DNA of 64,000 nucleotides from a phage. Shown one piece after another: positions 8,265 to 10,075 of this stretch. How positions within the stretch are numbered: position 1 is the first letter of the stretch; each line of letters begins with the position of its first letter. A program made the translations under genes and the position numbers. The stretch lies in assembly GCA_023551395.1 (NCBI GenBank), contig GCA_023551395.1_3945.1. One strand, written 5' to 3'. The notes under the pieces were generated by a model, which was not told the origin of the DNA, searched no databases, and saw only the letters and a list, made by a program, of their open reading frames with translations.

Positions 8265-8371
8265 AATGACCTCAAAGTTATATTAAATTTTGTATTACAT
8301 TGAGTATAAAAATAAGCTATAACACCTGACTTGTCAACAGATTTTATAGCTTATTTGGCAGATTTTTTATA

Positions 8372-8641
8372 AGGCTACTGCCATCCTTCCATACCTTACC
8401 TTACCACACCTAACCATACCTAACCATACCTAACCAAACTACACCATACAATACCTTGTTAAAAGACCCTTTTAAAGACCTTTTAAAAAGGTAAGTCTCA
8501 TTTTAATGTAGCTGAGACTAACTACCCATACCAGACCCTACCTTACCAAACCAGACCTCACCCTACCCCACCATACCGTATACTACCTCATTAAAAGACC
8601 CTCTTAAAGACCTTTTAAAAAGGAGCCTCCGAAGAGGCTAC
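8372..8641. repeat. composite intergenic repeat block, copy 1
   Basis: Plus strand nearly G-free tandem CCATACC/TTACC units, then AAAGACCTTTTAAAAAGG palindrome and hairpin GTAAGTCTCA...TGAGACT; second sub-unit ends in GGAGCCTCCGAAGAGGCT hairpin. Shares long stretches with 9774-10075. Confidence 0.7.
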
Positions 8642-8650
8642 CTAGTCAAC

Positions 8651-9091
8651 TTAGAAAGGTTTTCTGCGTTGCTTGTTAATGTTAGCTTTCATAGCAACTA
8701 AGTGGTTTTGCTGTTCAATTAGTCGTGAACGTTCTTGGTGGCTAAGTGCCATAGTGTTCACATTCTCAATTGCTTGAGTAGCTTGCTTTAAAGCACGACC
8801 AATTTTACCAGACATTTTACGTTTTGCAATAGTTGCTTGATGTTTAGGCTCAACCACACGATAACCAACACCCATTGAAGCAACCAGATAAATCTTCTCT
8901 TCTTTAAGAAGCTTTTCAATAAACTTCTCAAGTCGGTTTAGTCGTGTAAGTGCATAAGCCTTCATTTCATCTTCGTACTTAACAATGTCACCTTGATAAG
9001 TTGGCTTCACAATACCTAAGAAGGTATCCATCTCAGAATGTGATACAGTGTCACCGTAACTAAACTTTGCTGCTAATGCTTTTGTATTCAT
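8651..9091 (-). CDS. hypothetical protein
   Basis: 146 aa ORF between the two repeat blocks. Confidence 0.5.
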   Translation of the reverse strand: MNTKALAAKFSYGDTVSHSEMDTFLGIVKPTYQGDIVKYEDEMKAYALTRLNRLEKFIEKLLKEEKIYLVASMGVGYRVVEPKHQATIAKRKMSGKIGRALKQATQAIENVNTMALSHQERSRLIEQQNHLVAMKANINKQRRKPF

Positions 9092-9093
9092 AA

Positions 9094-9696
9094 TTAAACG
9101 TTACCTTCTGAAATAACTTCTACAGAAAAACGACCAAAGCGTGGACGCCAATCACCTACACCGCAAAGGTTACCAGCATTTTCCAGAACCATCAAGAGTT
9201 CCTCTTTGGTGATTTGCTCTTCATCGAACATCAAACCGAACTCTACAGACCAGTCACGGAAGATTGGACGGTAGCTCATAACTCGTGCTGTACCAATCTT
9301 AACAGACTTAGCATAGATAAAATCTGGATTCTTAGCAAGTTCTTGTGGGTTTGCTGGACAGTTCTTGATAGTCATTGGGAAGACTACATCTGTCAGCATA
9401 ATGGCTCGGTCAATTACCTTACCAAGTTTGTTGAGTTTTGCACCAGACTTGATACAAGCCTCAATCATCTCACCGTTCATAACAAAACCTAGCTGCTCAT
9501 CGTAGTAACAAGAGGTTACCAGTTGACTTTCTGCTAAGAGCGCATAGTCTTCGTCAGTCTTTTTACGTTTACTGGACAGAGACTTGTGATATTTTGTCAG
9601 AGGGTTTAATGGGTCTGACAACGTATCGTTATGGCTCAAGAAAGGACGAGTACCAGTGATTTTGATATTTAACAGTTTCATAGCATTTAGCTCCAC
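9094..9696 (-). CDS. hypothetical protein
   Basis: 200 aa ORF between the two repeat blocks. Confidence 0.5.
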
Positions 9697-9773
9697 ACTT
9701 TAGTTGATTGTTAAGTTGTTTGTAAAGAACCCTCAACAGAAGACTCTTTAGAAACTTGGTAGATTTTTAACGT

Positions 9774-10075
9774 GGCTACTACCATCCACCCATACCATAC
9801 CGAACCTTACCTTACCAAACCAGACCGCGCCTTACCAAACCAGACCAAACATTACTTTACCCTACCTCATTAAAAAACCCTCTTAAAGACCTTTTAAAAA
9901 GGTAAGTCTCATTTTAATGTAGATGAGACTAACTACCCATACTGTACCGCACCTGACCCGACCTGACCAGACCTAGCATTACCGTGCCACACCGTACCGA
10001 ACAGAACACTACCATACCTCACATCACTTAAAAACCCTCTTAGAAGACTCTTAAGTGATGCTGGTGAGTACCCGT
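9774..10075. repeat. composite intergenic repeat block, copy 2
   Basis: Same architecture as 8372-8641: GGCTACTACCATCC start, G-depleted CA/T-rich tracts, CCTCATTAAAA(G/A)ACCCTCTTAAAGACCTTTTAAAAAGGTAAGTCTCATTTTAATGTAG(C/A)TGAGACTAACTACCCATAC shared almost verbatim. Confidence 0.7.

Follow-up and report, generated by a model that had tools for sequence, protein, structure and literature searches.

Four guide RNA genes around two protein genes: a very probable type II VIPR locus in a Felixounavirus

Systems named VIPR, for Viral Interference Programmable Repeat, were described in two preprints of April–June 2026 (bioRxiv 10.64898/2026.04.26.720920 and.720927), with a structure deposited as PDB 36pp. 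A VIPR locus consists of vipr, encoding a minimal RAMP homolog of about 20 kDa with an RRM core, a glycine-rich loop and a thumb, of vap, and of vrRNAs of about 100 nt, each with 9–16 tandem YNNGG/GGYNN repeats and, after these, an invariant pseudoknotted tail. In the published system the vrRNAs co-purify with Vipr. Small-RNA sequencing of the phage SUSP1 yielded RNAs of about 100 nt from these intergenic tracts, expression having been shown for SUSP1 and a P. fulva prophage only, and silencing by the SUSP1 system was shown through GFP repression, defence against lambda and prophage induction, the protection being boosted by SUSP1 vap1. A natural target was accepted by the authors at an NN match of at least 80% with a 1-nt skip, the skipped base usually being the codon wobble position, and 18 of the 20 assignable guides of the SUSP1 clade were aimed at an E. 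coli satellite phage. The target search for this clade covered E. coli genomes only, with loci gathered via the Vipr protein, and VIPR was proposed as an ancestor of CRISPR effector complexes (bioRxiv 10.64898/2026.04.26.720920,.720927). The DNA analysed here is a stretch of 64,000 nucleotides (the window; GCA_023551395.1, contig GCA_023551395.1_3945.1), covering 64 kb of the ~88-kb genome of a Felix O1/wV8-like myophage (Felixounavirus, Ounavirinae). Its positions 8357–10118, read on the minus strand, almost certainly constitute a type II VIPR locus that is complete and belongs to the SUSP1 clade.

The closest described locus, the type II VIPR of SUSP1, occupies the same site between the DNA ligase gene and a gp86-like gene and is collinear with the present one, sharing the promoter, leader, terminator, spacer boxes, all three tail types and the GGYNN code. 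The guides of both phages point to one and the same E. coli island family. The two differ in that SUSP1 is a Suspvirus and the present phage a Felixounavirus, in the distribution of the vrRNAs (one upstream and three downstream in SUSP1, two and two here), in the guides themselves, none of the four found here being equal to a SUSP1 guide, and in a 48-aa membrane open reading frame (ORF) situated here between ligase gene and promoter.

The identification was carried first by the proteins. When the window proteins were searched with phmmer against PDB sequences, one strong match was obtained, 36pp chain D ("SUSP1 Vipr protein", E = 7e-128), over the full length and aligned from the ATG at 9681. 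Identity to SUSP1 Vipr was 97.9% (191/195 residues), and the four differing residues all lie outside the named contacts to GGY and DNA. The residues that hold GGY and clamp DNA are named in the cryo-EM text (bioRxiv 10.64898/2026.04.26.720920,.720927), and H17, K33, R39, E71, M72, K82, G87, K88, R138, C173, D177, W178 and R179 are identical in the two proteins; the glycine-rich loop sequence is also present here. The two minus-strand genes of the first-pass annotation (8651–9091 and 9094–9696) exist as ORFs, but the upstream boundary of vipr has to be moved. The mechanical ORF call begins at a GTG at 9696 and gives 200 aa, whereas the wV8 annotation, like the solved SUSP1 protein, starts from the ATG at 9681, which gives 195 aa; with a GGAG ribosome-binding site upstream, this ATG is most likely the true start. 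The second gene, vap, is 98.6% identical to SUSP1 vap1 (2/146 residues differ), holds the same position as in SUSP1 and begins (ORF 9091–8651) 3 nt past the vipr stop codon, in the layout of a two-gene operon. No family for Vipr or vap was found in Pfam, NCBIfam 20 or PADLOC, and PHROGs returned only clusters of unknown function (4652 and 5926).

Beyond protein identity, the assignment rests on the repeat code, the covariation of the tails, the architecture, the lack of self-targets and a single strong natural target, all observed in this analysis. Since every gene from 4781 to 15919 is on the minus strand, including those for thymidylate synthase, dihydrofolate reductase (DHFR), DNA ligase (10276–11376) and DNA polymerase, the locus is read on that strand. 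In this direction it runs through promoter, leader, two vrRNA genes, vipr, vap, a terminator-like hairpin and two further vrRNA genes, as follows (vrRNA lengths are predicted, as repeats plus tail).

10091–10118, minus strand: putative sigma-70-like promoter, TTGACA-N16-TATACT, with an 11/12 consensus match, the best in 7500–11000

10022–10102, minus strand: leader, an inverted repeat of two stem-loops, GGTGAGTA...TACTCACC at 10102–10063 and CATCACTTAAGAG...TTAAGTGATG at 10060–10022

9901–10018, minus strand: vrRNA-1, 118 nt, 16 GGYNN repeats (10018–9939) and a 38-nt hairpin/pseudoknot tail (9938–9901); guide code AT AG TC TC AC GT AC AA TA CT CA CG CA GC AC AT

9867–9900, minus strand: 34-nt spacer box TTTTTAAAAGGTCTTTAAGAGGGTTTTTTAATGA between vrRNA-1 and vrRNA-2, containing the palindrome noted in the first-pass annotation

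9758–9866, minus strand: vrRNA-2, 109 nt, 15 GGYNN repeats (9866–9792) and a 34-nt tail (9791–9758); guide code AG AA AA TT CT TT AA GC CT TT AA AA TC AT AT

9094–9681, minus strand: vipr, 195 aa, RAMP family, by phmmer against PDB 36pp_D; PHROG 4652

8651–9091, minus strand: vap, an accessory gene of the vap1 type, 146 aa, with 98.6% identity to the gene directly 3' of vipr in SUSP1; PHROG 5926

8617–8639, minus strand: intrinsic-terminator-like hairpin AGCCTCTTCGGAGGCT followed by CCTTTTT, directly after vap and identical in SUSP1

8588–8621, minus strand: spacer box ahead of vrRNA-3

8490–8587, minus strand: vrRNA-3, 98 nt, 12 GGYNN repeats (8587–8528) and a 38-nt tail (8527–8490); guide code AG AC AT GG AG GA CT TT AA AG CT AT, identical to a guide in wV8

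8456–8489, minus strand: spacer box ahead of vrRNA-4

8357–8455, minus strand: vrRNA-4, 99 nt, 13 GGYNN repeats (8455–8391) and a 34-nt tail (8390–8357); guide code AT AT GT TT TA AT TA AT TA GT AA AA AT

8303–8356, minus strand: boundary element, an inverted repeat forming an AT-rich hairpin with a promoter-like TTGACA-N17-TATTTT (10/12 match)

The putative promoter (10118–10091) is conserved in all relatives examined, SUSP1 and Felix O1 included, and both SUSP1 and Vipr-less phages have the same leader ahead of their first vrRNA. Judged by its sequence, this promoter would start the upstream vrRNA array and probably also the vipr–vap operon. The boundary element, with the presumed promoter of the next gene (8264–7881), lies outside the system proper.

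The repeat tracts account for the strand asymmetry of the region. On the plus strand, ACC or CC recurs every 5 nt at 8389–8435, 8526–8577, 9790–9846 and 9946–9973, the sole such runs in the 64 kb, and the 60-nt windows with at most two G (8374–8476, 8517–8596 and 9828–9900) coincide with these periodic tracts. The G-depleted tracts seen at first reading are thus real, but their unit is a five-base GGYNN on the gene strand and not the CCATACC/TTACC words that had been proposed. The two flanking repeat blocks, reported to share long near-identical stretches, align at 81% over 170 nt (8393–8562 against 9804–9973), every feature described in them was found in place, and their four sub-units form one 105-nt repeat family. 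The canonical GGY is present in 12/16, 13/15, 11/12 and 11/13 units of vrRNA-1 to vrRNA-4, respectively. In a set of 38 unique guides, drawn from 20 related phage loci, the first three pentamer positions are G (79%), G (98%) and C or T (100%), with entropies of 0.96, 0.17, 0.48, 1.88 and 1.82 bits for positions 1–5, the last two being near-random. The vrRNA-4 code is of low complexity, arising from a repeated 10-nt unit, GGTTAGGTAT (TA x AT x repeated), which is present in three copies here, two in KhF3 and garuso and five in Bas63 (JohannRWettstein); since this copy number varies between phages, the length of the vrRNA-4 guide changes by slippage.

A palindrome box (AAGACCTTTTAAAAAGG) had been ascribed to each sub-unit; exactly three exact copies exist (8475, 8607 and 9886), and with up to three mismatches 10 matches were counted against 0.7 expected by chance, but the fourth sub-unit (9916–10075) lacks the box and carries the promoter and leader hairpins instead. 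In all relatives examined, each internal vrRNA follows a conserved box, TTTTTAAAAGGTCTTTAAGAGGGTCTTTTAAYRA, and a related motif, CTTAAGAGTCTTCTAAGAGGGTT, lies inside the leader hairpin at 10022–10060. The spacer box may be a processing site or signal, a weak promoter or a site for a shared regulator. Both kinds of hairpin described earlier, one ending in TGAGACT and one in GAGGCTC, are present. Their reading as terminators with a T-run holds for the hairpin after vap, where GGAGCCTC-CGAA-GAGGCTC with its T-run (8639–8624, minus strand) looks like an intrinsic terminator, but most of the hairpins are the 3' tails of vrRNAs, built of a hairpin and a pseudoknot. Three tail types occur, and pseudoknot positions 3–6 pair 4/4 with positions 17–20 in all 15 distinct tails. 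The pairs covary between the types (GTAG/CTAC, GTGG/CCAC and AAGG/CCTT, double compensatory changes), as do the hairpin stems. Rfam 15, at gathering and at permissive thresholds, gave nothing relevant for the locus.

The link between protein and tracts was also found independently of any knowledge of VIPR, as IMG/VR had been scanned for the bare pattern (ACCNN)6ACC before the identity of the element was known. At least 120 loci were retrieved, some of them plain pentanucleotide microsatellites; at least 73 contained degenerate tracts like those of the window, often as arrays of 5–18 units with short fixed linkers. When all ORFs of these 73 loci were searched by phmmer with the proteins of the window, homologs of the 200-aa protein were detected in at least ~35 non-Felix loci (E values of 3e-28 to 6e-4). 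Among the matches listed, the Vipr homologs are usually directly beside the tracts, the G-rich strand being mostly the coding strand. Because homologs adjoin tracts in non-Felix loci, protein and tracts are a conserved pair across unrelated viruses and not cargo between scars; because they occur together in dozens of unrelated viral contigs retrieved by DNA pattern alone, the cassette and its repeats are one functional system. Some of the retrieved loci, on unrelated viral contigs (L105, L027, L059, L016, L017, L033, L116 and L120), hold 7–18 degenerate GGYNN tracts each, with short fixed linkers (aactgcc, cattagcctt, aattaaattcattaaaccattcctt) in place of long hairpin tails. Most of these large arrays adjoin distant Vipr homologs, the edges of their tracts are often GGCA-type variant pentamers, and they are probably other VIPR types.

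By analogy with SUSP1, the four vrRNAs would be expressed at about their predicted sizes, form a ribonucleoprotein with Vipr and silence their targets. As in the mechanism demonstrated for SUSP1, Vipr protomers, one per repeat, would assemble a helical filament on the vrRNA, which would hide each GGY and expose the NN dinucleotides. The string of NN would then pair with double-stranded DNA reading NNx NNx NNx, the skipped base usually being the codon wobble, and the resulting R-loop triplex would block transcription with no need for a protospacer-adjacent motif (PAM) and leave the DNA uncut. Two further suggestions of the first-pass annotation agree with the published work on the near-identical SUSP1 locus: that the GT-rich strand is transcribed, as borne out by the ~100-nt RNAs sequenced there, and that the strand-asymmetric tract is a protein-binding element, as is the case for SUSP1 Vipr.

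For the search of targets, the guides were recast as NNx patterns, IMG/VR was scanned with seeds of 9–10 repeats, and the full guide was then scored at each match. Guide 1 (vrRNA-1) gave a single match (29/32), in which 11 of the 14 non-seed positions agree. The site, 47 bp long (ATTAACTCAGCTACCGTGACAAATTATCTTCAGCGACAAGCAACCAG), lies inside an island ORF of 185 aa with no assigned function, and every skipped base is a wobble position; on a variant island the same guide scored 26/32. Guide 3 (vrRNA-3) scored 19/24 (79%) in the non-coding part of two variants of the same island; its own two IMG/VR seeds had given one chance match and then none. Guide 2 was scanned with two seeds, with 8 and 13 seed matches, none of which extends beyond chance. 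For guide 4, a score of 24/26 in two AT-rich metagenome contigs (34–35% GC), with 4/6 non-seed positions agreeing, was treated as chance. Within the 64-kb window, the best self-matches at a 1-nt skip (20/32, 20/30, 17/24 and 19/26, i.e., 62–73%) were equal to those of shuffled sequence, and perfect matches were found at a 3-nt skip only, being the guide genes themselves. No targeting by the guides of this phage was seen when phage JH2 was searched.

Island DNA was found in 418 of 5426 complete E. coli genomes (~8%), always in the chromosome. In E. coli O177:H21 (NZ_CP016546; L139 4553–18530) the island measures about 14 kb, lies inside wrbA and carries a serine recombinase, tape-measure and baseplate genes, an HNH endonuclease and a Dam methylase; the guide 1 site occupies L139 14989–15035 and the vrRNA-3 site L139 17071–17105, while variants (L142, L143 and L130) occupy other chromosomal sites, near yecN/yciI in other strains. 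Some variants hold a vrRNA of their own with a SUSP1-type tail and without vipr, in agreement with the preprint's description of the satellite; as blastn of block A, one of the two repeat blocks, against all complete E. coli genomes gave no match, such island vrRNAs cannot be found in that way. A string similar to the conserved box, TCTCTTAAAAGTCTGTTAAGAGGGTC, lies beside the vrRNA-3 site in the island (L139 ~17040–17070). Many Ounavirinae have guides aimed at the island: on four of its variants a score of at least 80% was reached by 11 of the 38 guides of the family and by 5 of 380 guides shuffled in order, and SUSP1 vrRNA2 scored 25/30 in the island tape-measure gene. The phage would thus appear to aim its system at competing mobile elements, guide 1 at a gene of a satellite-like island in the E. 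coli chromosome and guide 3 probably at the same island.

Several points weigh against the assignment or its extension to function. The published VIPR work consists of two preprints from one group that are not yet peer-reviewed (bioRxiv 10.64898/2026.04.26.720920,.720927). The expression, 5' ends and processing of the vrRNAs in this phage are extrapolated from SUSP1. The score of guide 3 falls just under the 80% cut-off of the authors, and guides 2 and 4 (vrRNA-2 and vrRNA-4) gave chance-level matches only and no target in the IMG/VR scans. The claimed homology between structural genes of island and helper was not reproduced, as tblastn of the island ORFs against the 64-kb window, which is part of the genome, gave none at E ≤ 1e-3. 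Finally, the cryo-EM text names a contact residue T175, whereas residue 175 is V in SUSP1 and here alike; this looks like a numbering slip in the text and not a difference between the proteins.

The cassette is polymorphic among relatives, as would be expected if the repeat blocks were mobile regulatory cassettes or recombination substrates for the gain, loss and swap of a two-gene cargo at co-infection. Such elements are known as promoter-early stem-loops (PeSLs) in T4-type phages, where repeated intergenic modules of a promoter and a stem-loop, reportedly described by Arbiol et al. in 2010, probably promote the modular shuffling of the small variable genes on either side; PeSLs are not known to encode guide RNAs for the gene that they flank. 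The present locus resembles them in part, with repeated leaders and boxes flanking a cassette that is present or absent among relatives and with shuffled units; a strong promoter stands in the upstream block only. blastn of 8000–10400 against GenBank phages returned 295 records, nearly all Felix O1-like myophages, with 93–99% identity to VpaE1, wV8 and KhF3; the 200-aa (vipr) gene is present in 132 phage records, against 296 records with the flanks. Felix O1, Si3, Meda, EC6, JH2 and others have only promoter, leader, one vrRNA and tail, Felix O1 lacking both genes, which is the remainder expected after recombination between repeated leaders or boxes. UAB_69, Bas63, LF110P2 and others keep two vrRNAs and no genes, whereas SUSP1, Sf18 and others have a second leader copy ahead of the last vrRNA, and guide units are shared by several phages in different combinations. 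The locus is therefore not invariant among relatives, and the first-pass suggestion of a recombination cassette stands as far as this polymorphism goes; the repeats, however, are primarily the guide RNA genes of the protein encoded between them and not scars or substrates. An explanation by recombination alone leaves the five-base GGY periodicity with its hypervariable NN, the covarying pseudoknot tails and the NN match to foreign genes unexplained, as well as the link of the protein family to such tracts in unrelated phages, and is considered very unlikely. The repeats differ from PeSLs in being functional partners of the cassette protein. Recombination between repeated leaders, boxes and tails plausibly explains the loss of the cassette, as a side effect that concerns how the VIPR locus evolves and not its function.

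Arrays that bind protein at the level of DNA, such as an iteron or R-loop-primed replication origin or a partition centromere, would also account for some of the features. A strong promoter followed by a C-free transcript is a classic R-loop-prone arrangement, the region lies among replication genes, and direct repeats were marked here by the annotators of both wV8 and KhF3, the latter with a note on a possible binding site of StbAB. Neither cassette protein, however, resembles StbA, ParR or Rep (Pfam, NCBIfam and PHROGs), a 5-bp period is too short for repeated double-stranded sites on one face of the helix, Felix O1 and others manage with one degenerate unit, and the solved structure shows the SUSP1 protein on the repeats in their RNA form, so that this explanation deserves hardly any credence. 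A StbAB-type centromere in particular, with direct repeats of 9–11 bp and a StbA/ParR-type protein, was rejected, no such family being found and the period being 5 nt and strand-asymmetric. Almost no weight can likewise be given to the idea that the asymmetry reflects only transcription or RNA physics. The plus-strand tracts, 60–100 nt long, C-rich and almost free of G, have the textbook hallmark of a Rho utilization (rut) site on antisense transcripts, and GGN3GGN3GG could in principle form two-tetrad G-quadruplexes in the sense RNA, but there is no plus-strand promoter or gene nearby, and the strict pyrimidine at position 3 and G at position 2 are required by the Vipr pockets and by neither of these models. 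Also considered and dropped were a sponge for tRNA CCA ends or anti-Shine–Dalgarno sequences, a TRAP-like attenuator, a RecA-preferred Chi-like GT-rich hotspot, BREX GGTAAG clusters and primase sites; like the R-loop origin, rut and G-quadruplex ideas, they leave the strict G-G-Y with free NN and the linked protein unexplained.

The VIPR locus was further compared with described systems built on repeats and proteins. CRISPR-Cas was rejected, since the repeat search gave only four composite units and the pentamer tracts, and no cas family was found for the two proteins (Pfam, NCBIfam and PADLOC). With the Cas7 filaments of class 1 CRISPR-Cas, VIPR has in common a RAMP-fold protein that polymerises on a guide RNA, a thumb that flips bases at a fixed period, a variable guide part capped by a structured invariant part, and an R-loop on DNA. 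It differs in having, at this locus, no CRISPR array, cas1/cas2, spacer acquisition, PAM or nuclease, in being encoded by a virulent phage, and in its non-contiguous guide, of which two in five RNA bases read two in three DNA bases. Type III toxin–antitoxin systems (ToxIN-like) have tandem near-identical RNA repeats of ~34–36 nt upstream of an endoribonuclease toxin gene; they were rejected as a match, the units here being ~130 nt, internally pentameric and hypervariable, and the protein a RAMP homolog that is not ToxN-like. TRAP of Bacillus, a ring protein, reads (G/U)AG triplets spaced by 2–3 nt in the trp leader RNA, and in its recognition of RNA it is alike in using one subunit per ~5-nt repeat, a conserved trinucleotide and free spacer bases. 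Its fold is unrelated to that of Vipr, its spacer bases carry no information and it has no DNA target.

Several lone vrRNAs of Vipr-less relatives were found to match vipr itself. The complete JH2 genome has one tract only and neither vipr nor vap (best tblastn E ~0.8–0.9), and its guide scored 18/18 (19/20 with a tenth repeat) on window positions 9656–9681 (plus strand), i.e., vipr codons 1–9 including the ATG, the base skipped being the wobble base of the codon; on JH2's own genome it scored only 16/20. The Felix O1-type lone guides match another vipr site, 9182–9210 (minus strand; codons ~158–167), in phase, with scores of 17/20 for Felix O1 and Si3, 16/20 for Meda and 18/20 for Ro111lw and Seyj1-1. 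Such a score alone is not rare, a best match in the window of at least 15/18 being reached in 11% of shuffles; chance is nevertheless unlikely because the site lies inside the 588-nt vipr, the codon phase agrees and JH2 provides an independent perfect match. For no tested guide of a Vipr-encoding locus did the best match in the window fall in vipr, and neither VIPR preprint mentions orphan guides or Felix O1.

On the strength of these matches, the lone vrRNA of Vipr-less Felixounaviruses, JH2 and the type phage Felix O1 among them, may be a guide-only counter-weapon, which a rival's Vipr would load at co-infection and which would then silence the rival's vipr. The lone guides may instead descend from an ancestor in which self-targeting favoured the loss of vipr, may be remnants of an autoregulatory guide, or may be mere relics left after deletion. 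Phage-borne mini-CRISPR arrays and RNA anti-CRISPRs are guide-only or repeat-only elements that exploit or jam the Cas proteins of a rival. The lone vrRNAs resemble them in matching a rival's vipr and in that they could act only through the rival's protein, and differ in that this is a candidate function for elements that may be deletion relics.

The function of the locus is well explained and already known as VIPR through the preprints, although it is absent from the family databases Pfam, NCBIfam 20, PADLOC and Rfam 15. The present analysis adds the exact coordinates and the decoded sequences of the four guides, two natural targets (one of them strong, the other probable), the independent rediscovery of the link between protein and repeats, and the lone guides aimed at vipr. 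VIPR represents a newly reported mode in which RNA reads DNA, two informative bases per five in the guide reading two per three in the target. In the Felix O1-like phages of E. coli and Salmonella, widely used phages that serve for typing and biocontrol, it belongs to the standard equipment but can be dispensed with. The pattern of presence and absence, together with the lone vipr-directed guides, suggests a conflict among three parties: the phage, the satellite and a rival phage. The locus has stood unrecognised in more than 100 GenBank records as "hypothetical proteins" and "DR_4" repeats: in the wV8 record (NC_012749) parts of the vrRNA genes are labelled "DR_4" and vipr and vap are hypothetical proteins, and in the KhF3 record (KT184315) the StbAB note lies on the vrRNA region and vipr and vap are without annotation. 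The repeats are not discussed in the genome papers of Felix O1 and UAB_Phi87.

Two minor observations concern the rest of the window. The ORF between the ligase gene and the VIPR promoter (10126–10272, minus strand; 48 aa, hydrophobic, PHROG 22006) is shared by this phage with UAB_69, Meda, Ro111lw and Bas63 and absent from Felix O1, JH2 and SUSP1, while FGS030 has an unrelated 200-aa ORF in its place; as the 48-aa ORF comes and goes and FGS030 has an unrelated one, this is a second variable slot. At the far end of the window, two tRNA genes (63621–63779, plus strand) probably open the cluster of tRNA genes that Felix O1-like phages typically have.

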